From the UHGV virus genome UHGV-0107442: a stretch of DNA of 34,578 nucleotides, one strand, 5' to 3'. Each line of letters begins with the position of its first letter. Position 1 is the stretch's first letter. Below, in pieces: positions 2,854-15,967 of the stretch. Both the position numbers and the translations under genes were made by a program. Below the pieces are notes generated by a model that had not been told where the DNA came from, made no database searches, and was given only the letters and a program-made list of their open reading frames with translations. Source of the DNA: a virus.

Positions 2854-3057
2854 ATGACACCTAACATTTCAATTACTCTGAATACACCACATGTCACAAT
2901 CGAACGTTATAGCGAACTGACTGGCCTTTCTATTGATACGATTAACGACATGTTGGCTGATGGCCGACTACCTCGTCATCGTCTTCGTAAAGACAAAAAA
3001 CGTGAAAAGGTAATGATTAACCTGGCTGCTCTGACTGTTGATGCTTTGTCTGCTTAA
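2854..3057 (+). CDS. apl: Apl/Cox-like small DNA-binding protein (excisionase / lysogenic-promoter repressor)
   Basis: 67-aa ORF, first gene rightward of the switch, divergent from cI; position and size match 186 apl / P2 cox. ATG 2854 with AAGGA 10 nt upstream. Confidence 0.65.
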
Positions 3058-3105: not shown

Positions 3106-3121
3106 TTCGGAGTTGAAAACC

Positions 3122-3631
3122 ATGTTTGATTACCAAGTTTCCAAACATCCACATTTTGATGAAGCCTGTCGTGCATTTGCATTGCGCCACAACTTGGTGC
3201 AACTGGCAGAACGTGCAGGTATGAATGTGCAGATTCTGCGGAACAAGCTGAATCCAGCTCAACCTCATTTATTAACCGCACCAGAAATTTGGTTGCTTAC
3301 TGATCTGACAGAAGACTCAACACTGGTAGATGGTTTTCTGGCACAGATTCACTGCCTGCCATGTGTGCCGATTAATGAGGTGGCAAAAGAGAAACTGCCA
3401 CATTACGTCATGAGTGCAACCGCAGAGATCGGGCGTGTTGCTGCAGGTGCGGTATCTGGCGATGTAAAAACCAGTGCAGGTCGTCGTGATGCCATCAGCA
3501 GCATTAACTCTGTAACACGACTGATGGCGCTGGCTGCTGTTTCATTGCAGGCCCGTTTACAGGCTAACCCTGCGATGGCGAGTGCGGTTGATACCGTAAC
3601 TGGCCTCGGTGCTTCATTCGGTTTGCTGTGA
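3122..3631 (+). CDS. cII: Phage 186-type CII lysogeny-establishment activator
   Basis: ORF 3113..3631 begins with TTG; ATG at 3122 gives 169 aa, the same length as 186 CII. Strong remembered similarity ([19 protein letters not shown]...NKLNP...[25 protein letters not shown]...). Confidence 0.85.
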
Positions 3632-4695: not shown

Positions 4696-4922
4696 TGGCT
4701 GATGCAATGGATCTCGTCCAGCAGCGCGTTGAAGAAGAACGCCAACGTCATATCCGTGCTGCCCGTGCCAAAACGCCGGGCGTGTCCCGCGTGCTTTGCG
4801 TTGAGTGTGAAGCGCCAATTCCGCCAGCACGCCGTCGTGCCATTCCGGGTGTGCAGCTTTGCATTACCTGTCAGGAAATCGCAGAGCTGAAAGGCAAACA
4901 TTACAACGGAGGTGCTGTATGA
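4695..4922 (+). CDS. TraR/DksA-family C4 zinc-finger protein
   Basis: 75 aa with CVECE...(17 aa)...CITC, the two CxxC pairs typical of phage/plasmid TraR-like proteins. Translationally coupled to neighbours (ATGA overlaps at both ends). Confidence 0.7.
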   Translation: MADAMDLVQQRVEEERQRHIRAARAKTPGVSRVLCVECEAPIPPARRRAIPGVQLCITCQEIAELKGKHYNGGAV

Positions 4923-5776
4923 GCACCATCCTGAAATGGGCGGGAAATAAAACCGCCATAATGTCCGAACTGAAAAAGCATCTTCCTGCTGGCCCGCGAC
5001 TGGTTGAACCTTTCGCGGGTTCCTGTGCAGTGATGATGGAGACGGATTACCCCAGCTATCTTGTTGCGGATATTAATCCTGATTTAATCAACCTCTATAA
5101 AAAGGTTGCTGCTGATTGTGAGGCGTTTATATCTCGTGCCAGAGCTTTATTTGAGGAAGCAAACAGGGAGGTGGCTTATTACAACATAAGGCAGGAGTTT
5201 AATTACTCCACTGAAATTACTGATTTCATGAAAGCGGTATATTTTCTGTATCTCAATCGTCATGGTTACCGTGGGTTATGTCGCTATAACAAGAGCGGGT
5301 ATTTCAACATTCCCTACGGTAATTATAAAAATCCGTATTTCCCTGAAAAAGAAATTCGCGCATTTGCAGAGAAAGCCCAGCGGGCAACGTTTATCTGCGC
5401 CAGCTTTGATGAAACGCTGGCGATGTTGAAGGCGGGGGATGTGGTGTATTGCGATCCGCCGTATGACGGTACGTTTTCCGGCTATCACACTGATGGTTTC
5501 ACTGAAGATGACCAGTATCACCTGGCATCCGTTCTTGAACATCGGTCATCAGAAGGACATCCGGTCATTGTTTCTAACAGTGACACATCCCTGATCCGTT
5601 CGCTGTATCGCAATTTTACTCACCACTACATCAAGGCAAAACGCAGCATCGGTGTGGCAGCTGGTGATAGTAAATCTGCAACAGAAATCATTGCTGTTTC
5701 CGGGGCGCGCTGCTGGGTGGGATTTGATCCTTCGCGTGGCGTAGATAGTTCTGCTGTGTACGAGGTGCGTGTATGA
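4919..5776 (+). CDS. Dam-type DNA adenine methyltransferase (GATC-class N6-MTase), orphan
   Basis: ORF 4859..5776 begins with TTG; ATG at 4919 follows GGAGG at 8-nt spacing. Has the DPPY catalytic motif (VYCDPPY) and an N-terminal AdoMet region (ILKWAGNK...EPFAGSCAV). No adjacent restriction endonuclease gene. Confidence 0.85.
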
Positions 5777-8166
5777 GTCATGACGATATGAGCAACTCTA
5801 GCGGCTTTAACGAGGCCGCTGCATCATTTTCATGGAACGGCCCGAAAAAGGCCATTAACCCTTATCTGGACCCGGCGGAATTTGCGCCGGAGTCTGCACT
5901 TTCAAACCTGATCACTCTGTATGCTGCCGATAACGAGCAGGAACAACTGCGCCGCGAGGCACTGAGTGAGCAGGTCTGGGAGCGTTATTTCTTTAATGAA
6001 TCCCGTGATCCTGTCCAGCGCGAAATGGAGCAGGATAAGCTCATTAGCCGGGCAAAGCTGGCGCATGAGCAGCAGCGTTTTAATCCAGACATGGTCATTC
6101 TGGCTGACGTCAACGCCCAGCCTTCCCATATCAGCAAGCCGCTGATGCAACGTATTGAATACTTCAGCAGTCTGGGCAGGCCAAAGGCTTATTCCCGCTA
6201 TTTGCGTGAGACGATTAAGCCATGTCTGGAAAGACTGGAGCATGTACGCGACAGTCAGCTATCCACTTCTTTTCGCTTTATGGCAAGCCATGAAGGGCTG
6301 GACGGCCTGCTGATCCTGCCTGAAATGAGTCAGGATCAGGTAAAACGCCTGTCCACCCTGGTAGCAGCGCATATGAGCATGTGTCTTGAGGTCGCTTGTG
6401 GTGATTTGTATGCCACCGATGACGTTAAGCCAGAAGAAATCCGCAAGACATGGGAAAAGGTGGCGGCGGAAACCCTGCGACTGGATGTCATACCGCCTGC
6501 GTTTGAGCAACTCCGCAGGAAAAGAAACCGCCGTAAACCCGTGCCCTATGAACTTATTCCGGGTTCGCTGGCGCGTATGTTGTGCGCCGACTGGTGGTAT
6601 CGGAAATTATGGAAGATGCGTAGCGAATGGCGGGAAGAGCAGTTGCGTGCTGTTTGCCTGGTCAGCAAAAAAGCATCTCCCTATGTCAGCTATGAAGCCG
6701 TGATGCATAAACGTGAGCAGCGCCGTAAGTCGCTGGAGTTTTTCCGTTCTCATGAACTGGTGAACGAAGACGGCGACACGCTGGATATGGAAGACGTGGT
6801 AAACGCCAGCAGCAGCAACCCTGCGCATCGCCGCAATGAGATGATGGCCTGTGTTAAAGGTCTGGAGCTTATCGCGGAAATGCGCGGTGACTGCGCCGTT
6901 TTCTACACCATCACCTGTCCGTCACGTTTCCATTCCACGCTAAATAACGGCAGGCCAAACCCGACCTGGACCAACGCGACAGTAAGACAAAGCAGCGATT
7001 ATCTGGTCGGCATGTTTGCTGCATTTCGTAAGGCTATGCACAAAGCCGGGTTGCGCTGGTATGGCGTGCGGGTGGCTGAGCCGCATCATGACGGCACAGT
7101 TCACTGGCACCTGTTGTGTTTCATGCGCAAAAAAGACCGCCGCGCCATTACTGCATTGTTGCGTAAGTTTGCCATCCGTGAAGACCGCGAGGAGCTGGGC
7201 AATAACACGGGGCCACGCTTTAAGTCTGAGCTGATAAACCCGCGCAAAGGAACGCCGACAAGCTACATTGCGAAATATATCAGTAAGAATATTGACGGGC
7301 GTGGTCTGGCTGGCGAGATCAGTAAGGAAACGGGTAAATCCCTGCGTGATAACGCTGAATACGTTAATGCCTGGGCGTCTCTGCATCGTGTTCAGCAATT
7401 CCGCTTCTTTGGCATTCCGGGGCGTCAGGCTTACCGTGAACTGCGATTGCTGGCTGGTCAGGCGGCAAGGCAACAGGGGGACAAAAAAGCAGGTGCGCCG
7501 GTACTGGATAACCCGCGCCTTGATGCAATCCTGGCTGCTGCTGATGCTGGTTGTTTTGCCACTTACATCATGAAGCAGGGCGGCGTACTGGTTCCCCGCA
7601 AATATCACCTCATCAGAACTGCTTATGAAATTAACGAAGAGCCGACCGCCTATGGCGATCACGGCATTCGTATTTATGGCATCTGGTCACCCATTGCAGA
7701 GGGCAAGATCTGCACTCATGCAGTGAAGTGGAAAATGGTTCGTAAAGCCGTTGACGTTCAGGAGGCGGTAGCCGACCAGGGCGCTTGCGCCCCTTGGACT
7801 CGTGGCAATAACTGTCCCCCTGTTGAAAATATGAACAAATCAGGGGGGGATTTACCCGATATTAAAACCATGGATGAGAAGGAGCTGCAGGAATATCTCC
7901 ACAACATGGGCCAGAAGGAACGGCGGGAGCTGACAGCCAGGTTGAGACTGGTAAAACCGAAGCGAAAAAAAGCATACATACAGAGTATTTCGGAGCAGCA
8001 GCGCCTGCAGCTTGAGGCAGAACTGACTGCCAGAGGGTTTGAGGGTAGTGTATCTGAGATTGATTTGCTTCTGCGTGGCGGCAGCATTCCATCCGGTGCC
8101 GGTTTACGTATTTTTTACCGTAAACAGAGGCTGCAGGAAGATGACAAATGGCGTCGATGGTACTAA
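5773..8166 (+). CDS. A: Rolling-circle replication initiation protein (P2 gpA family)
   Basis: 797 aa; size and position match P2 A (761 aa). Contains the region [13 protein letters not shown] (HUH-like) and downstream YIAKYISK with candidate catalytic tyrosines. Start overlaps the Dam stop. Confidence 0.9.
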
Positions 8167-8235: not shown

Positions 8236-8278
8236 TTTACATTTTTTCTTTCCTACTATACTGTTTGTAAAAACAGTG
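8236..8278 (+). promoter_or_regulatory. SOS-regulated promoter: -35 TTTACA / -10 TATACT overlapping a LexA box
   Basis: TACTGTTTGTAAAAACAGTG (8259..8278) matches the LexA consensus TACTGT-N8-ACAGTA in the CTGT-N8-ACAG core. -35 at 8236..8241 and -10 at 8257..8262 (15-bp spacer, suboptimal). Lies 47 bp upstream of the ATG at 8325. Confidence 0.55.
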
Positions 8279-8324
8279 GGTATATGTACAGTATTTGTGT
8301 ATCCGTGTAATGATAGGAGGGAAG

Positions 8325-8513
8325 ATGCAGGACTATCTTTTGGAGTCATTGAAGCTCCAGCGTATTGATTTTTTTATCAAGCTTGTAGCGGCTAGTGAGT
8401 GCAGCGACGAAGAAAAGCGGCTGGCTATCCAGTGGGTGTCCGAACTGACAGATGAGTTGATGGCGAAAATTCGCAGCCATGAATACAGCCGATCAATGGA
8501 CGTTACCAGTTAA
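8325..8513 (+). CDS. Small SOS-box-controlled protein (62 aa); candidate Tum-like antirepressor module
   Basis: ATG 8325 follows AGGAGGG. Function inferred only from context: 186 places its LexA-controlled antirepressor tum in the equivalent position. Confidence 0.45.
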   Translation: MQDYLLESLKLQRIDFFIKLVAASECSDEEKRLAIQWVSELTDELMAKIRSHEYSRSMDVTS

Positions 8514-8525
8514 AGGGAAATCTGT

Positions 8526-8747
8526 ATGCGCATTGAAATAATGATCGATAAAGAGCAGAAGATTAGCCAGGCCACACTGGAAGCCCTTGAATCCGAGCTC
8601 TACCGTAATTTGCGCCCTCTGTATCCCAAAACAGCAATTCGTATCCGTAAGGGCAGCGCCAATGGTGTTGAACTGAGCGGGTTAAAACTGGATGAAGACA
8701 AAAAGCGAGTAATGGAAATAATGCAGCAGGTTACATTAAAACGTTGA
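8526..8747 (+). CDS. DinI-family protein
   Basis: 73 aa; the MRIEIMI start and overall pattern resemble E. coli DinI (MRIEVTI...). SD AGGGAA upstream; downstream of the LexA box. Confidence 0.8.
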   Translation: MRIEIMIDKEQKISQATLEALESELYRNLRPLYPKTAIRIRKGSANGVELSGLKLDEDKKRVMEIMQQVTLKR

Positions 8748-8908
8748 TCCCGATAGGATCCTATCAGAGGGAACAAGGTTGAACAACGAGTGAAGCGAGG
8801 CGTTAGGTATGGCGGTCATGATCTTCAATGGCCGCCAGCTTTGTACTGTTTGCTCAACCAGCGGGTGCAACATACTTTTCTAACTCGAATATAAGATAAG
8901 ATTTTTTA

Positions 8909-8937
8909 TTTACAACACTTGGCTTGTTCCTTAGTAT
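8909..8937 (+). promoter_or_regulatory. Candidate sigma70 promoter for the ATPase-HNH operon
   Basis: TTTACA (8909..8914), 17-bp spacer, TAGTAT (8932..8937), in AT-rich DNA about 45 bp upstream of the ATG at 8983. Confidence 0.4.
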
Positions 8938-8982: not shown

Positions 8983-10164
8983 ATGAAACTGACTGAGCTA
9001 ACTATAAACGGTATCGGGGGGATAAAGTCCCTGTACGTAAAATTTAGGCCTGACATGAATATTATATGTGGGCCTAACGGAGTTGGAAAATCCACACTCT
9101 TGCTTGCTGCCTCCTTTCCTTTTCTTCATGGATACACTAATAGAATAAAACGCAATGTCACTTCTGAAACAGGAAGTGTTAGTCTAATAATAGAAGATAA
9201 TTCTGTTAACTTTAATTCAGTATTAGATGTTAACGTTCATTTGCCTACAGAAACAATTCACAACTTTAATAATAACGGATTTGATAAGAGGAAACTAATA
9301 AAATTTGAAATATTACGTAACTTTGATTATAAACATCTTGAGGCGTTGAATGCAGATAAATCACTATCCGATGATGCTGTTTCGCAACAGATTAATTTAG
9401 GTGTCAATTTACATGATATCAAGGATTGGTTTGCTAAGAGGGATTTGTTTGAAAAAGTAGATAATGGTTACGGTCCTAATACGATAAAAAATATACATCT
9501 TGCAAGGGAGTGTATATCAATTTTAAACCCTCAGTTTTCTTACAATCGCGTCGATCCTAAATCTTACGATATTTTTGTAAATACCCCGACCGGGGTAATA
9601 TGGTATGAATATCTGTCCTCGGGATTCAAATCATGTATGAGTCTCCTTCTCGGTATTATTAAAGAGATCGAGCTTCGTTATCCGGAGAAAGATATTTACG
9701 CCCAAGAATTTGATGGAGTGATTCTTATCGATGAAATTGAGCTTCATTTGCATCCTGAGTGGCAGGCAAGAATCACTGAAGCCCTTACGACAACATTTCC
9801 ATCAGCACAATTTATTGTCACAACTCACAGCCCACATGTAGTACAGAATGCAAAACCACATCAGATCATTGCGTTAGTACCAGATAATGATGGCACAGTG
9901 AGAGTAAAAGAACTTCCTGAAAATGGCTTGGGTTATTCTGCCTGGACAGTTGAAGAGGTTTTGTTAGATGTAATGGGGATGGAAAGCACTCTCAGTAGAA
10001 AACTACAAGAACTACTTGATAATTTCGAACGTTTTGTTGATGAAGAAAATTTCGACAAGGCGAAAGAAATTTATGATTATTTGGATATGGCATTGCATCA
10101 AAACAGTATTCTTCGTAAATCTCTTAAAATAAGCCTGATGTCAATTCGAGAGAGAGAAGAGTAA
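8983..10164 (+). CDS. ABC/SMC-like P-loop ATPase, Septu PtuA-like
   Basis: ORF 8962..10164 begins with GTG; ATG at 8983 follows AGGAA. Walker A GPNGVGKST, Walker B VILIDEIELHLHP, then TTHSP. 393 aa; the stop abuts the start of the HNH gene. About 33% GC versus about 52% in the phage backbone. Confidence 0.8.
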   Translation: MKLTELTINGIGGIKSLYVKFRPDMNIICGPNGVGKSTLLLAASFPFLHGYTNRIKRNVTSETGSVSLIIEDNSVNFNSVLDVNVHLPTETIHNFNNNGFDKRKLIKFEILRNFDYKHLEALNADKSLSDDAVSQQINLGVNLHDIKDWFAKRDLFEKVDNGYGPNTIKNIHLARECISILNPQFSYNRVDPKSYDIFVNTPTGVIWYEYLSSGFKSCMSLLLGIIKEIELRYPEKDIYAQEFDGVILIDEIELHLHPEWQARITEALTTTFPSAQFIVTTHSPHVVQNAKPHQIIALVPDNDGTVRVKELPENGLGYSAWTVEEVLLDVMGMESTLSRKLQELLDNFERFVDEENFDKAKEIYDYLDMALHQNSILRKSLKISLMSIREREE

Positions 10165-10165
10165 A

Positions 10166-10912
10166 ATGATTAAGCTTGAACGGAACTTTATTCCTGATTT
10201 TTTTACTCGTGTTGATCTTCTATCTTTAACTCAGGAGTTTAAAGATAATGGAACATCTGTTTGGCATCATCCGGAAGTAAAATCGGCATGTCTAAAATTA
10301 AGTAATGGCAAATGTGCATTTTGTGAGGTCAAGCTTGAAGAGGCTAGCACCTATAATGAAATTGAGCATTTTAAGGATAAAAAAAATTTCCCTGATGATG
10401 TTATTAGATGGGAAAATCTCCTTCCTTCATGCCGTCACTGTAATGGTTCAAAACAACGCCATAATGTTGTACTCAATCCTATAATAAATCCATGCAACGA
10501 TTTACCGTCAGAACACCTTTATATGATAGGGTATCGTATTAAAGGTAAAACTGATTTAGGTAAAACAACAGTGGATGTTTTAAACTTTAATCACAGGGAG
10601 CACAAGTTTATACCGCGTTGTAAAGCAGGGGAACTTATAGATAGCAGTATTGATGACGCAATAGAAAAACTTAATTGGTTTAATGAGAATCCAAGTACTA
10701 GACGTAAAAACATTCTTATGAATCTAGTCGAGGCAATATTAGGTGAGTGTCAGAAAACATCTCCCTTTTCTGCAGTATCAGCAACAATGCTTCATCGTTC
10801 AGTCGAATATTCTTATCTGAAAGAAACCATGCAGATGCAAGGATTATGGTCAGATTATATGCAGGAACTTCATGATGAATCTTTGAGCCTGACGTTACCG
10901 TCAATTCGCTAG
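10166..10912 (+). CDS. HNH endonuclease, Septu PtuB-like
   Basis: 248 aa with CAFCE...EIEHFKDKKNFPDDVIRWENLLPSCRHCNGSK (CxxC...H...N...CxxC HNH core). ATG 10166 is 1 nt after the ATPase stop. Confidence 0.8.
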   Translation: MIKLERNFIPDFFTRVDLLSLTQEFKDNGTSVWHHPEVKSACLKLSNGKCAFCEVKLEEASTYNEIEHFKDKKNFPDDVIRWENLLPSCRHCNGSKQRHNVVLNPIINPCNDLPSEHLYMIGYRIKGKTDLGKTTVDVLNFNHREHKFIPRCKAGELIDSSIDDAIEKLNWFNENPSTRRKNILMNLVEAILGECQKTSPFSAVSATMLHRSVEYSYLKETMQMQGLWSDYMQELHDESLSLTLPSIR

Positions 10913-11284: not shown

Positions 11285-11378
11285 AACTCATAAATCCTAG
11301 ATTATTAGTGGATTTATCTCATTGAAATGTGCACTATTCCCAGCATTGAGTTGTACCAGATGTCTTTATGGAGGGACT

Positions 11379-13145
11379 GTGGCTTTTGTAACTGATATTC
11401 GGCTTGAAGATAATGCTATTGCTGCACCTGCGACAGCACAGGTTATGGCTCAGAGGCTAGGATCTGTATTACGTAAGAGATATGAAGAATTCATCCATAA
11501 AAGAGAGTGTGCACCAGGCCAAGCAGACTATGATGTAAAAATGGCTAGCAGGGCTTTAGCTGCATTCACTATGTATCAGTTAGGATGTGTGGATGATAAG
11601 TATGCAGGGGAGTCTGTATGTGATAGTAGTGAAGATGGTGGTATAGATGGAATAGCAATCAACCATAACGAAAAAATCGTTGTTGTTGTTCAATCAAAAT
11701 TTCACCAATCGGGAAACGGCACTTGGACAAGAGCCGATTTTATGTGTTTTAAGGATGCTTGTGAGAAGCTACAAAGTGAAAGATACGAATTATTTGATTC
11801 CATATTGCAAAATAAAAGCGGGGAAATAAGTGCGGCTTTAAGTAGTTTTGAATACAAGTTCATCTTTGCGATGGCGCATACAGGTAAAAAAGGTGCTGCA
11901 GAGGAAATATTAAATGATATGCGGGAATGGCAATATCAATTAAACGCTGCAGCTTTTACACCTGAGGATGAGCCTAAAGAGAACTGGGGATTTCAGGTTC
12001 ATTTAATATCCTCTGAAGATATGATGCATTGGTTACAGAATGGCTCTCGAAATCAAATTGATCTTAACAGGGTTGAAATTGAGCGTTTTGGATTTTTGAA
12101 TGAACCATATCAAGCTTTTTACGGGGCTATTAGTGGTGATCAAGTTGCAGAATGGTGGGAAGAGCATGGTGCTCGATTATTTACAAAAAACATAAGGAAT
12201 ATGCTTGGTAAAACAGAAGTGAATGAGGAAATAAAAAAGACAGCTATAGATAATCCTGATATGTTTTGGTTTTATAATAATGGGATTACTGTACTGGTTA
12301 AGGAGGTTGTTCCTCATAGACGAAACGCAGCTCCTAATATAGAGAGAGGGATTTTTGATTTTCGTGATGTAAGTGTCATTAATGGTGCACAAACAGTCAG
12401 TAGTATTGGCGCATGTAAAGATGCGCTTGGTGAAAACATATATAGACTCAAAGTGCCAGCCAGATTCATTGTTATAGATGATGATACTGATAATTTAACT
12501 GCAAATGCGATTACAAAAGCTAACAATTTCCAAAATAGAGTATTGGGAAGAGATTTTGCGTCGCAGCAGGCAGATCAACATAGATTGGCAAGGGAGTTAG
12601 TGCTTGAAGGATATCAATATCAGTTACTAAGAACAGATGAAGATCATTCACAGACAAATACGAAAGTCATTGACTTGGATGAGGCGCTCAATGCACTCGC
12701 ATGTTTAAGTAAAAATAATACGGTTGTATCGACACTAAAATCAAATCGCGGTAGGTTTTTTGAAAATTTTGAAGGCTCTCTATATAAAACTATTTTCAAT
12801 CCAAGATTAAGTGGTTTAAAACTTATCAATACTGTTCTACATTTTAGAGTTATAGATAAGTTGATCGGTAAAACATTACTATCAGTAGATAAAACTACCC
12901 ATAGTCGCAAGCATTTAATTATTACGCATGGTAATAGATACTATGCGTCTGTGCTATTGAGCAACGTTTCTGGGATACATAATAGCTCAGAAATTCTTGT
13001 TCCAGATGAAAAAAATCTTTCAGAAGAATTAAGTGCATTAATTCAACGTGCTGAAGAGTACATTGAAGATAATTACCCGAATGCCTATCCGGCAAGATTT
13101 TTTGCAAATCCAACGAAAATACAAGAGTTATACGATAATGTTTAA
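11379..13145 (+). CDS. AIPR-family (abortive-infection phage-resistance) protein with an N-terminal PD-(D/E)xK-like nuclease motif
   Basis: ORF 11322..13145 begins with TTG. Start uncertain: GTG 11379 (GGAGGG 3 nt upstream) or ATG 11445. N-terminal DSSEDGGIDGIAI...VVVVQSKF resembles Mrr/restriction-endonuclease-like D...QxK. Central WFYNNGITVLV...VINGAQT matches the AIPR hallmark as remembered. AT-rich. Confidence 0.7.
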   Translation: MAFVTDIRLEDNAIAAPATAQVMAQRLGSVLRKRYEEFIHKRECAPGQADYDVKMASRALAAFTMYQLGCVDDKYAGESVCDSSEDGGIDGIAINHNEKIVVVVQSKFHQSGNGTWTRADFMCFKDACEKLQSERYELFDSILQNKSGEISAALSSFEYKFIFAMAHTGKKGAAEEILNDMREWQYQLNAAAFTPEDEPKENWGFQVHLISSEDMMHWLQNGSRNQIDLNRVEIERFGFLNEPYQAFYGAISGDQVAEWWEEHGARLFTKNIRNMLGKTEVNEEIKKTAIDNPDMFWFYNNGITVLVKEVVPHRRNAAPNIERGIFDFRDVSVINGAQTVSSIGACKDALGENIYRLKVPARFIVIDDDTDNLTANAITKANNFQNRVLGRDFASQQADQHRLARELVLEGYQYQLLRTDEDHSQTNTKVIDLDEALNALACLSKNNTVVSTLKSNRGRFFENFEGSLYKTIFNPRLSGLKLINTVLHFRVIDKLIGKTLLSVDKTTHSRKHLIITHGNRYYASVLLSNVSGIHNSSEILVPDEKNLSEELSALIQRAEEYIEDNYPNAYPARFFANPTKIQELYDNV

Positions 13146-13175: not shown

Positions 13176-14201
13176 TTAGAAATGGTATTCTTGGAATTCA
13201 ATAACACCTTCTTTTATGAAATTGTTTATTTCTTGTAATCTTTTTTGCAATGGCAATAATTCATTACGTACAAATACTTTACTCGCCTTCTCTACATCTC
13301 CAAAGCCCCCAACATTATTAGGCATTATCCCCATCATTTGCGGTGGCACACGATGCGCCGCCATCATGTCATCCCGGCTCACGTTCTTGATGTTTAGAAA
13401 CTCATCCTTCGCCGCCACTTCTGACAACGGGATAATCTGAAGTCCGTCCTTTTTCCCGTTAGGCGAGTACATAAACAGGTTGCGGAAGTTACCTGGTCCT
13501 TTGGCGCTTTTCATCGCATTGCGGAGGTTGTTCACATCCTCCTGGTTTTGCGCGGCATCGGTCATGTACATGATGAAGCCTGCATGACTGCCGTTAATGT
13601 AATACTTTCGGCGGAACAGCGTGGCGGACTCGTTGAGCAGGGCTGACGGAATGGCAGAAAGGTAACCTGGCAGGCCGTAGATCTCCTGGTTGATGTCCGG
13701 TTCCATCAGATGAAAGATGCTTCCTTTCGTGAACTGATATGGCTGCGTGGTCATACCGTATTGCACAAACCAGTAGGTATCCAGGTCTAACCCGCGTCGG
13801 GTGTATTTTGCCAGGGCAGGTTCAAGGGCGATAACTTCACCGAAGCGGTTAGTGCGTTTCTCCAGGTAGGCGTTACCAAAAACCAGATAGTCCTGCACAA
13901 AACGTGAAAAAGCCTGCTGGCTGAGCAGCGGGTGAGGGATATAGGTGCTGGACAGAATGTTGCACTTTACTGCAATCGGGGAGCTGTGATGTACGGCAGC
14001 GCGGAAGGTTCGCGCCAGCCCGTCGAAACTCACTGGTGGCTCATACCAGCGGTCCATCTGTACGCATTCCACATAGTCCAGTAATTCGCGGCGGTCCAGA
14101 ACAGGAACGGGATCACCGAAGCTGAATGCTTCGGCTGAAGTTTGGTTTTTATGCTGGATCTGGTTCGTCGCCGCAGCGCGGTTTTTCTTACTCTTTCCCA
14201 T
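13176..14201 (-). CDS. Q: Portal protein (P2 gpQ family)
   Basis: 341 aa from ATG 14201 (-); the track's 14204 start is TTG. Size and position match P2 Q; the start overlaps the P stop (ATGA). Confidence 0.9.
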   Translation of the reverse strand: MGKSKKNRAAATNQIQHKNQTSAEAFSFGDPVPVLDRRELLDYVECVQMDRWYEPPVSFDGLARTFRAAVHHSSPIAVKCNILSSTYIPHPLLSQQAFSRFVQDYLVFGNAYLEKRTNRFGEVIALEPALAKYTRRGLDLDTYWFVQYGMTTQPYQFTKGSIFHLMEPDINQEIYGLPGYLSAIPSALLNESATLFRRKYYINGSHAGFIMYMTDAAQNQEDVNNLRNAMKSAKGPGNFRNLFMYSPNGKKDGLQIIPLSEVAAKDEFLNIKNVSRDDMMAAHRVPPQMMGIMPNNVGGFGDVEKASKVFVRNELLPLQKRLQEINNFIKEGVIEFQEYHF

Positions 14202-15967
14202 CAAAAAATCTCCACAATATTGCTGGTATTGGCGGACTCGCCCTGCAGCGGTTCGTTAAACAGTGCGTGCATTGTTGCCCAGGCCAGATCGGCATGGCTG
14301 GCTTCTTCGCTGCGGCTGGCTTCATAGGTTGGGCGGTTGCCGCTGGCGGTGGTGGCGCGACGGATTGCCATAAATGACTGCGCTATGTCGGTGTGTCCGG
14401 CGTCAAACTCCAGACGACGGTGACTGATAATGTCGTAGGCCTTGAGTACCAGGGCGTTTTTAACGTTGGGGTTGTAGACAAACTCCCGGACGGCTGGAAA
14501 AAACGCTTTCACGTTCTCGTAAACCCCGTGGCCGACACCTGTCGAGTCGATGCCGATGTAGGTCACGTTGTACTGTTCGGTCAGTTTTTTGATGGCGTCA
14601 GCCTGGGCGCGAAAGTCCATTCCGCGCCACTGGTGACGCTCAAGAATGCGGAACTTGCCGCCCGGTACGGTTGGCGGAGCCACCACCACGCATCCGGCGC
14701 TGTCGCCATTCTGCGTACCTTTCGCCGGGTCATAACCGATCCATACTTCGCGCCAGCCAAACGGGCGCAGGGCCAGTGCATGAAAGTCAGTCCAGACTTC
14801 CCAGCTGTCTACCATGCACGCCTGCAGCTCGCTGAGCGGGAACACGGACGCGAGATCGTCCACAAACTCGCACATCAGCAGGTTCTGGTATTCGTCCGGG
14901 CTGTACTCCATGCGCAACTGGTCAAGGTCGAACAGGTTACAGCCGCCGCGCACCGCATCTTCCACGGTGACTATCTGGCGGTATTGCCCGTCTGCGCACA
15001 GCAGGCCGGGGGCCAGATTGCTGTGGGACAGGTCGATGTCCACCTTATCGGCTTTGTTGCGCCCACGGTTGAACAGCGCACCGGACCAGAACGGATAAGC
15101 ACTGTGGGTCAGGCTGGATGGTGTGGAAAAATAGGTCTGCCGCCATTTCTTGTGAATAGCCATACCGGAAGCCACTTTGCGTAGCTCCTGAAATTTCGGT
15201 ATCCAGAAATATTCATCCAGATACAGGTTGCCGTGATAACTCTGAGCCGTGCGGGCATTGGTGCCGAGGAAGTAAAGCGTGGCCCCGTTAGGAAGCACCA
15301 TCGGATCGCCTTTCAGTTCCACATCCACTTCTTTGGCGAAGTCGATGATGTACTGCTTAAAGACGTGGGCCTGTGCCTTACTGGCGGAAAGAAAAATCTG
15401 GTTACGTCCGGTAAGCAGGGCGTCAATCAGGGCTTCACGGGCAAAGTAAAAGGTCGCGCCGATCTGGCGTGACTTCAGCAGGTTGCGGATGCGGTTGGTT
15501 TTTCCGACTTCCCACCAGTGGCGCTGGTAGTTGAACATGGAGGAATGGAAGATTTCTTCCAGCTTCTCAATCTGTTCATCGGTGAAGACATTCTTTTCCG
15601 GCTGACGGCGCGGGCCTTTGTTGCGGTTGGCGACGTTAGGGTTTAAGTCAGCTTCGTTGCCGCCATTGTTAAACTTGCCGATCCGCGCGTGGCGCTCCGA
15701 CTGGCGCGCCAGCAGGTCAATCTCTTTGAAATCTTTCCCTTCTTTGTGCTCCTTCATGATGAGCTGGCAGTAGCGTGCGGCGGTGGTGAGCTGCATCTGA
15801 TCCAGCGGCCCATAGTCACCCCACTTGTCGCGTTTTTTCCAGCTGTGAACGGTTGCAACTTTCTCGCCCAGCATTTCAGCAATGCGGGCTACGCGGTATC
15901 CCTGAAAGTACAGCAGCATGGCCTGCCGACGGGGATCGAGATCTGCGGGTGTCAGTGTGGTGTTCAT
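14201..15967 (-). CDS. P: Terminase large (ATPase) subunit (P2 gpP family)
   Basis: 588 aa; the P-then-Q leftward operon is characteristic of P2-like phages. ATG at 15967 (-). Confidence 0.9.
   Translation of the reverse strand: MNTTLTPADLDPRRQAMLLYFQGYRVARIAEMLGEKVATVHSWKKRDKWGDYGPLDQMQLTTAARYCQLIMKEHKEGKDFKEIDLLARQSERHARIGKFNNGGNEADLNPNVANRNKGPRRQPEKNVFTDEQIEKLEEIFHSSMFNYQRHWWEVGKTNRIRNLLKSRQIGATFYFAREALIDALLTGRNQIFLSASKAQAHVFKQYIIDFAKEVDVELKGDPMVLPNGATLYFLGTNARTAQSYHGNLYLDEYFWIPKFQELRKVASGMAIHKKWRQTYFSTPSSLTHSAYPFWSGALFNRGRNKADKVDIDLSHSNLAPGLLCADGQYRQIVTVEDAVRGGCNLFDLDQLRMEYSPDEYQNLLMCEFVDDLASVFPLSELQACMVDSWEVWTDFHALALRPFGWREVWIGYDPAKGTQNGDSAGCVVVAPPTVPGGKFRILERHQWRGMDFRAQADAIKKLTEQYNVTYIGIDSTGVGHGVYENVKAFFPAVREFVYNPNVKNALVLKAYDIISHRRLEFDAGHTDIAQSFMAIRRATTASGNRPTYEASRSEEASHADLAWATMHALFNEPLQGESANTSNIVEIF

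Follow-up and report, generated by a model that had tools for sequence, protein, structure and literature searches.

Phage 186 carries an SOS operon, p95-tum-orf97 (Lamont 1989, Brumby 1996 and Shearwin 1998, as summarized in PMC3121763), which is annotated in NC_001317 with a p95 promoter made of TTCACA, an 18-bp spacer and TACTGT, and with a LexA site that begins at the -10 hexamer. According to the account that PMC3121763 gives of the antirepressor-CI biochemistry of Shearwin et al. 1998, CI repressors of the 186 type are inactivated by an antirepressor and not by RecA-mediated cleavage. In Fels-2 and PSP3 a stop codon divides tum in two, and in PSP3 the antirepressor is the upstream gene (Lemire et al., PMC3121763); as cited there, the statement on the split gene goes back to Bunny, Liu and Roth 2002 and to a personal communication from G. 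Christie. The GenBank record of PSP3 lists tumA ("UV induction of prophage") and tumB. Genetics has been published for DuoHS, the related prophage of E. coli HS, in which an in-frame deletion of tum (ECHS_RS04495) abolishes mitomycin C-induced lysis and the formation of virion foci, as does a lexA(Ind-) allele (PMC12055606, PMC11195241). Here we compare these systems with positions 8236 to 8747 of UHGV virus genome UHGV-0107442, a stretch of 34,578 nucleotides that we refer to, at its full length, as the window. The window is a P2/186-family (Peduoviridae) prophage of the Fels-2/DuoHS-like kind, situated next to rcdA in E. coli, and the segment very probably represents its SOS operon, an induction switch that works through an antirepressor. 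In this respect the operon is a further copy of a known system, whose mechanism was worked out in 186 and then borne out by genetics in a relative with 90% identity.

The operon is headed by a tum-type, p95-like promoter. Its -35 hexamer, TTTACA (8236-8241, + strand), is kept in five aligned Fels-2-like relatives (as GTTTACA in E. coli S1), and 17 bp downstream stands TACTGT (8259-8264, + strand), the same -10 hexamer that is annotated for 186 p95. An alternative -10, TATACT at 8257-8262, would leave a spacer of 15 bp. TACTGT serves at once as the -10 and as the left half of LexA (SOS) box 1, TACTGTTTGTAAAAACAGTG (8259-8278), which spans the -10 and the predicted transcription start and has its CTGT-N8-ACAG core at 8261-8276. 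A preliminary description of this locus, made from the letters and their open reading frames (ORFs), had pointed to a near-consensus LexA box overlapping the -10 of a promoter, and these coordinates bear it out. Taken alone, the bare CTGT-N8-ACAG pattern is weak evidence, as this 16-mer matches the window twice against 0.63 matches expected, and 16 of 100 shuffled windows contain at least two. The longer form, TACTGT-N8-ACAGT, has its sole exact match at box 1; with one mismatch allowed there are three matches in the window against 0.31 expected. We also scored the window with a position weight matrix (PWM) trained on 28 E. coli LexA boxes; its scores are indicative only. Box 1 scores 21.5 bits, with a training-site median of 19.7, and this value is reached anywhere in just 0.5% of shuffled windows. 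The second bare match, at 8619-8634 within the downstream dinI-like ORF, was considered as a LexA box and rejected as a chance occurrence, since it scores 6.8 bits, has poor flanks and is broken in Fels-2.

The strongest argument for a genuine LexA box 1 is its positional conservation. TACTGT-N8-ACAGT(G/A) was found at the same place 5' of the small ORF in 10 of 10 Peduoviridae loci examined, which span six named genera: the window, 186, PSP3, Fels-2, SopEPhi, ESSI-2, Klebsiella ST437-OXA245phi4.1, E. coli 500465-1, an E. coli S1 prophage and Yersinia YenM_324. The spacer and the flanks of the box vary among these loci.

The first gene of the operon is a tumA-like gene of 62 codons (8325-8513, + strand), an antirepressor candidate with homology to about the first 52 residues of 186 Tum. 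A Shine-Dalgarno sequence for it, AGGAGG at 8315-8320 on the + strand, is kept in relatives. The preliminary description was right about this ORF but implied a start at 8326, one base off the ATG at 8325. The protein belongs to phrog_698 ("unknown function"; E = 1.5e-36); Pfam holds no family for it, and no solved structure was found for its family. RefSeq and almost every phage record annotate its gene as encoding a hypothetical protein, and one Klebsiella set names the product a levan regulatory domain protein. An exhaustive HMMER search yielded 58 representatives of the family, mostly of 50 to 75 residues, with the shared motif LQRI-x-L-x2-RLVA-x3-C-x3-(D/E)K-x-LA-x-W-x2-EL. Searches by tblastn with either the 62-residue protein or the Tum N terminus did not link the two families, and the link was obtained only through a profile built on distant representatives. 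With this profile of 23 sequences, residues 2-52 of the window protein align with residues 2-52 of 186 Tum (hhalign probability 94.6%, E = 6.8e-8), the two proteins being about 18-19% identical. AlphaFold2 predicts a two-helix hairpin, with helices at residues 2-23 and 28-61 and the conserved Cys in the turn, at a predicted local distance difference test (pLDDT) score of 86.9. Phage SEN8 encodes the very same protein, and those of DuoHS (Tum, ECHS_RS04495) and Fels-2 are 90% and 87% identical to it.

The published DuoHS genetics concerns precisely this small gene. ECHS_RS04495 is a 62-residue "hypothetical protein" encoded immediately 5' of the DinI-like gene, and the published deletion primers join ATAGGAGGAAAG-ATG to TGA-GGTGACTTTTATGCGCATTG, which are the exact boundaries of the 62-codon ORF. 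The requirement for tum and for a cleavable LexA is established in this relative with 90% identity. Deletion of the small ORF and dependence on LexA were the tests that the preliminary description had called for, and in DuoHS both tum and a cleavable LexA prove necessary for induction. Its suggestion that the prophage of the window is probably SOS-inducible also agrees with the LexA box, with the homologies of Tum and CI and with the genetics of the 90%-identical DuoHS Tum.

The second gene, dinI-like or tumB-like, encodes 73 residues (8526-8747, + strand). It is adjacent to the tumA-like ORF and co-oriented with it across a 12-nt gap, and each of the two has its own Shine-Dalgarno sequence. 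The preliminary description had placed a DinI-family gene 3' of the 62-codon ORF and had held that the antirepressor-like and DinI-like parts are separate ORFs; both statements stand. The protein matches the Pfam family DinI (PF06183) with an E value of 1.3e-17 and 64.3 bits, against a cut-off of 24.2, over profile positions 2-55 of 63, and it also matches phrog_189 (E = 4.8e-24). Identity is 36% with residues 71-139 of 186 Tum and 84%, over 69 residues, with the DinI-like protein of HS. Alignment with a Leclercia locus that has the same downstream cargo places a 20-bp deletion at 8731|8732 in the window gene. The window protein ends in ...QQVTLKR, where all other relatives have ...QQVWEDDSWLH and Leclercia has ...QQVREDYRWLH, and it has no full-length C-terminal helix ending in the acidic/aromatic tail (WEDDSW in phage homologues). 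Because of this deletion, every BLAST alignment with relatives without this cargo ended at 8731-8732. The end of homology at 8731 was also considered as the left edge of a variable hotspot, a reading that we rejected since the Leclercia locus shows a 20-bp deletion inside dinI. The same deletion occurs in an IMG/VR contig, and judging from regions that are 99.8-99.9% identical, four complete E. coli genomes probably carry the truncated allele as well. The acidic C-terminal helix of E. coli DinI contacts RecA, and the window protein may be impaired by the loss of its tail. As a separate observation, ESSI-2 (Cronobacter; locus L005, 1463-1660) and YenM_324 (Yersinia; locus L009, 1433-1650) have the LexA box and a small ORF resembling the Tum N terminus alone; the small ORF is itself unannotated, and no dinI-like gene is annotated between gene A and portal.

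The genes around the operon include a 186-type switch. The operon lies directly 3' of the replication gene A (5773-8166, + strand; Pfam Phage_GPA, E = 3e-127) and ahead of a variable region, an order common to 186, PSP3, Fels-2 and HS. The position is equivalent to that of tum in 186, as had been noted before, with the p95-tum operon just after gene A in both. The CI immunity repressor of the 186 type (2139-2708, - strand; 189 residues, GTG start) contains the Pfam domains Phage_CI_repr and Phage_CI_C. Its identity with 186 CI is 33% across the whole length; it also matches the structure of 186 CI (PDB 2fjr; E = 1.9e-32) and is 87% identical to the CI of DuoHS. Against Peptidase_S24 it scores 16 bits, under the cut-off of 23.3, and no stretch of it passes alone. 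We infer that this CI is the target of the antirepressor. Within a set made up of the window, HS, Fels-2 and SopEPhi, the TumA-like proteins share 87-98% identity and the N-terminal domains of CI 67-81%; the C-terminal domains fall to ~30% identity across immunity types. Compared with their counterparts in 186, the antirepressor shares ~18% identity and the N-terminal domain of CI ~40%. This hint from five phages suggests that the antirepressor may recognize the DNA-binding domain of CI and may act across heteroimmune relatives.

The operator of the window appears to be double. LexA box 2, with its core GTGGGTATATGTACAG at 8276-8291 (full box, 8274-8293), shares G8276 with box 1 and scores 14.0 bits in the PWM, inside the range of the training sites. 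The Fels-2-like group retains G(G/T)TAT(A/T)T(G/A)TACAGT directly 3' of box 1, and within the group the ACAG and the spacer TAT of box 2 are invariant. In the ten-locus comparison, 186 and PSP3 have a single LexA box each, without box 2. A short-query BLAST search of 8250-8300 against plasmids matched 1405 records, the best of which were small Col-type plasmids with 88-90% identity over 40-42 nt. We opened two of these records, and in both the operator match lies just 5' of a colicin N or klebicin-type bacteriocin gene, with TATACTGT...CAGTGGTTATATGTACAGTATTT in common. Judged by their sequence, boxes 1 and 2 together are a colicin-type double overlapping SOS operator. The preliminary description made no mention of a double SOS box, nor of the truncated dinI-like gene, the LexA box at int or the defence genes further downstream, all treated elsewhere in this text. 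The double SOS boxes of colicin promoters bind two LexA dimers, and tight, late derepression has been documented for them (PMC2994835). By analogy, the operator of the window is probably occupied by two LexA dimers, and induction in the Fels-2-like group would be very tightly repressed and come late in the SOS response.

We propose that these elements would work together as follows. In the lysogen, LexA would sit on the operator, over the -10 and the transcription start of the p95-like promoter, and keep the operon silent. Upon DNA damage, RecA-stimulated self-cleavage of LexA would derepress the promoter, and TumA, the predicted 62-residue helical hairpin, would be made. TumA would then bind the 186-type CI non-covalently and block its binding to operators. 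With CI off, the early lytic promoter would fire and the prophage would be induced. The DinI-like TumB would not be the inducer; by analogy with DinI and with truncated Tum it may modulate RecA and the SOS response, a function that the loss of its tail may weaken. The anatomy, the homologies and the conservation of the operator are shown by the sequence comparisons made here; we infer the occupancy of both boxes by LexA, the binding of CI by TumA and the role of the DinI-like protein.

Several observations weigh against this reading of the operon as an antirepressor switch. A generic sigma-70 scan did not call the p95-like promoter at 8236-8264, because TACTGT fits TATAAT at just 3 of 6 positions; as a -10 it is poor. 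Pairwise BLASTP of the 62-residue protein with 186 Tum gave no alignment, and the proposed homology to Tum has one profile comparison and synteny as its basis. PSP3 TumA matches the family profile weakly (hhalign E = 0.0024, probability 12%, 29 columns), with a register that is consistent around the conserved Cys. For box 2, a score of 14 bits is reached somewhere in 21.5% of shuffled windows. The dinI-like gene is truncated, and the window ends before ogr, covering the prophage in part. Finally, TumA-like proteins of near-identical sequence are paired with CI C-terminal domains that are ~30% identical, a pattern that blurs what would set their specificity.

It could be argued that the module is a relic which gives no SOS response, either because the prophage is defective or because the promoter or operator is non-functional. 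The 20-bp deletion in the dinI-like gene fits such decay, and so do the weak -10 and the fact that the window shows part of the prophage. We consider this improbable, as the operator, the ribosome binding site and the 62-codon ORF are intact, with a product identical to that of SEN8; the CI/Apl/CII switch and gene A are present and uninterrupted, as are long ORFs of the late region; and p95 of 186, which is functional, uses this same weak -10.

A slightly fainter prospect is that the LexA-controlled operon is real but its inducer is the DinI-like protein, or both proteins, with the 62-codon ORF an unrelated accessory gene. The in-frame deletion of that ORF alone in DuoHS, which abolishes induction, is hard to reconcile with this, and so is the significant profile match of its family to the Tum N terminus, even though 186 Tum is a single polypeptide that includes the DinI-like half and the small protein has neither a Pfam family nor pairwise similarity to Tum. 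In ESSI-2 and YenM_324, moreover, the small ORF and LexA box occur with no dinI annotated between gene A and portal, and several genomes retain the dinI-like gene of the window version despite its C-terminal truncation. The idea that an AT-rich intergenic region has produced a LexA-like palindrome by chance can be dismissed: the bare pattern does occur twice, as it does at least in 16 of 100 shuffles, and its copy inside the dinI ORF looks like chance, but the full 20-mer with its 21.5 bits is rare in shuffles, lexA(Ind-) blocks induction in the relative DuoHS, and the position of the box, kept in 10 loci while neighbouring bases vary, effectively refutes the idea.

We take the antirepressor switch as the preferred reading in what follows. 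A further LexA box, TACTGTATGTATAACCAGTG at 1773-1792, lies in the spacer of a promoter-like site on the - strand in front of the integrase gene (691-1743, - strand). This site consists of TTGACA (1796-1791), 17 bp and AAAAAT (1773-1768), and the box is ~25 nt upstream of the int start at 1743. At 23.8 bits it has the highest LexA PWM score in the window, and no shuffle equals it. E. coli HS DuoHS, 813R9, KP12 and ESSI2_ev129 retain its half-sites; the last of these is 70% identical overall and has a canonical CTGT-N8-ACAG at the box. In Fels-2, SopEPhi and 186, int abuts cI, leaving no equivalent intergenic space where a promoter of this kind could lie. In this int cassette the integrase is probably under SOS control by LexA. 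Between cI and int there is also an ORF of 63 codons (1932-2123, - strand) with a hydrophobic N terminus, several cysteines and no Pfam match. A hypothetical ORF of the same length occupies the same position between cI and int in E. coli HS. The ORF may, from these features, be a moron encoding a small secreted protein or lipoprotein.

The remaining genes of the left part of the window follow the order of relatives. A TetR-type host gene (20-586, + strand) has the position of rcdA next to DuoHS. An Apl/Cox-like gene (2854-3057, + strand) and CII (3113-3631, + strand) follow CI, and an ORF at 4859-5776 (+ strand) aligns, by position only, with a gene that in HS and Fels-2 encodes a DNA adenine methylase.

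Downstream of the operon, a terminator scan found a GC-rich 10-bp hairpin followed by GCUUUGUACUGUUUGCU, a U-rich tail, at 8810-8837 on the + strand. The RNA fold of 8740-8860 has an energy of -47.8 kcal/mol (z = -3.95). The hairpin probably terminates the SOS operon and would be the counterpart of t95a in 186. Rfam gave no match in the window. Beyond the hairpin come genes for a Septu PtuA ATPase (8983-10164; PADLOC E = 1e-151) and PtuB HNH nuclease (10166-10912; PADLOC E = 2e-95), and a gene for an AIPR-domain, AbiU-like abortive-infection protein of 607 residues (11322-13145; Pfam AIPR E = 7e-35, PADLOC AbiU E = 7e-25). The Septu and AbiU-like genes occupy the variable slot that precedes the portal gene in relatives; where portal sits in relatives, the window has a candidate ORF of 342 codons (13176-14204, - strand), assigned by position only. 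In the same region there is a third LexA-like site, TACTGTTTGCTCAACCAGCG at 8844-8863, with 15.7 bits. It overlaps the U-rich tail of the terminator, lies ~120 nt 5' of the ptuA start and does not overlap a promoter-like site at 8909-8937. The site is identical in the sole related loci found, which were reached through relatives of PtuA and are all at least 95% identical overall, making the identity uninformative. This LexA-like site could be due to chance.

Of 5426 complete E. coli genomes, 1181 have a match to the module, taken as running from the 3' end of gene A through the dinI-like gene, and four carry the exact version of the window. Prophages with this module, the one described here included, should respond to DNA-damaging agents and antibiotics through LexA and the antirepressor, and not through repressor cleavage. 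For annotation, the gene now recorded as that of a 62-residue "hypothetical protein" could be named tum or tumA, and the module helps to predict the mobilization of the Septu and AbiU-like defence cargo. It is a tentative proposal, somewhat less likely than not, that the SOS wiring of Fels-2/DuoHS-like phages is more elaborate than that of 186, with a double tum operator, a LexA box at int in the subgroup with the rcdA-site integrase, and the third site at 8844-8863. If so, induction of the tum type would be a tightly repressed, late, all-or-none SOS function, and the supply of integrase for excision would also be directly under LexA. We found no description of the double operator, the int LexA box or the 8844-8863 site in the searchable literature. 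Novelty, if any, is confined to the double operator and the LexA-boxed int promoter. They would be modest refinements, and they could explain how tight and how late the commitment to induction is.

Among the known systems, DuoHS has an orthologous module with the same double SOS box at the same rcdA-adjacent site. Fels-2 likewise has an orthologous module (STM2728/STM2726.1) with the same double box; unlike the window, its CI is heteroimmune, with ~30% identity in the C-terminal domain, and its int directly adjoins cI. Relative to HS and Fels-2, the 20-bp dinI deletion and the Septu and AbiU-like cargo are the window's own. PSP3 shares the split arrangement, the LexA box and the position, and its TumB is close to the DinI-like protein of the window; it differs in its single LexA box and in a TumA that is a barely detectable relative of the window ORF. 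The operon of 186 has the same position, the same promoter layout with the -10 TACTGT inside the LexA box, and the same CI/Apl/CII switch; its Tum is homologous to the two window ORFs, by profile in the N-terminal part and also in the DinI-like part, and a terminator-like hairpin followed by cargo genes lies downstream in both. In 186, however, Tum is one fusion of 146 residues with internal starts where the window has two ORFs, and a single LexA box and the cargo gene orf97 stand in place of the double box, Septu and the AbiU-like gene.

Outside the family, Gifsy-1, Gifsy-2 and Fels-1 also have a small LexA-repressed antirepressor (GfoA, GftA and FsoA) that is co-transcribed with a DinI homologue, and these antirepressors can act in trans on the repressors of other prophages (PMC3121763). 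In those operons dinI comes first, reversing the order seen here, and both the antirepressors and the lambdoid repressors belong to unrelated families. The operator itself has close matches in colicin and klebicin promoters with two overlapping SOS boxes (ColE operons, colicin N, klebicins), where TATACTGT..A..CAGTGG.TATATGTACAGTATTT shares ~88-90% identity across 40-42 nt and the boxes likewise overlap by one base. The colicin box 1 ends in CCAG where that of the phage ends in ACAG, and the -35 and spacing are unlike those of the window, with TTGACA further upstream and the boxes apparently 3' of the -10. The genes 3' of the colicin and klebicin operators are unrelated to those of the phage operon. 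Both kinds of operon nevertheless control a function that is lethal to the cell expressing it (PMC2994835), and the near-identity of their operators suggests a shared or exchanged regulatory cassette.

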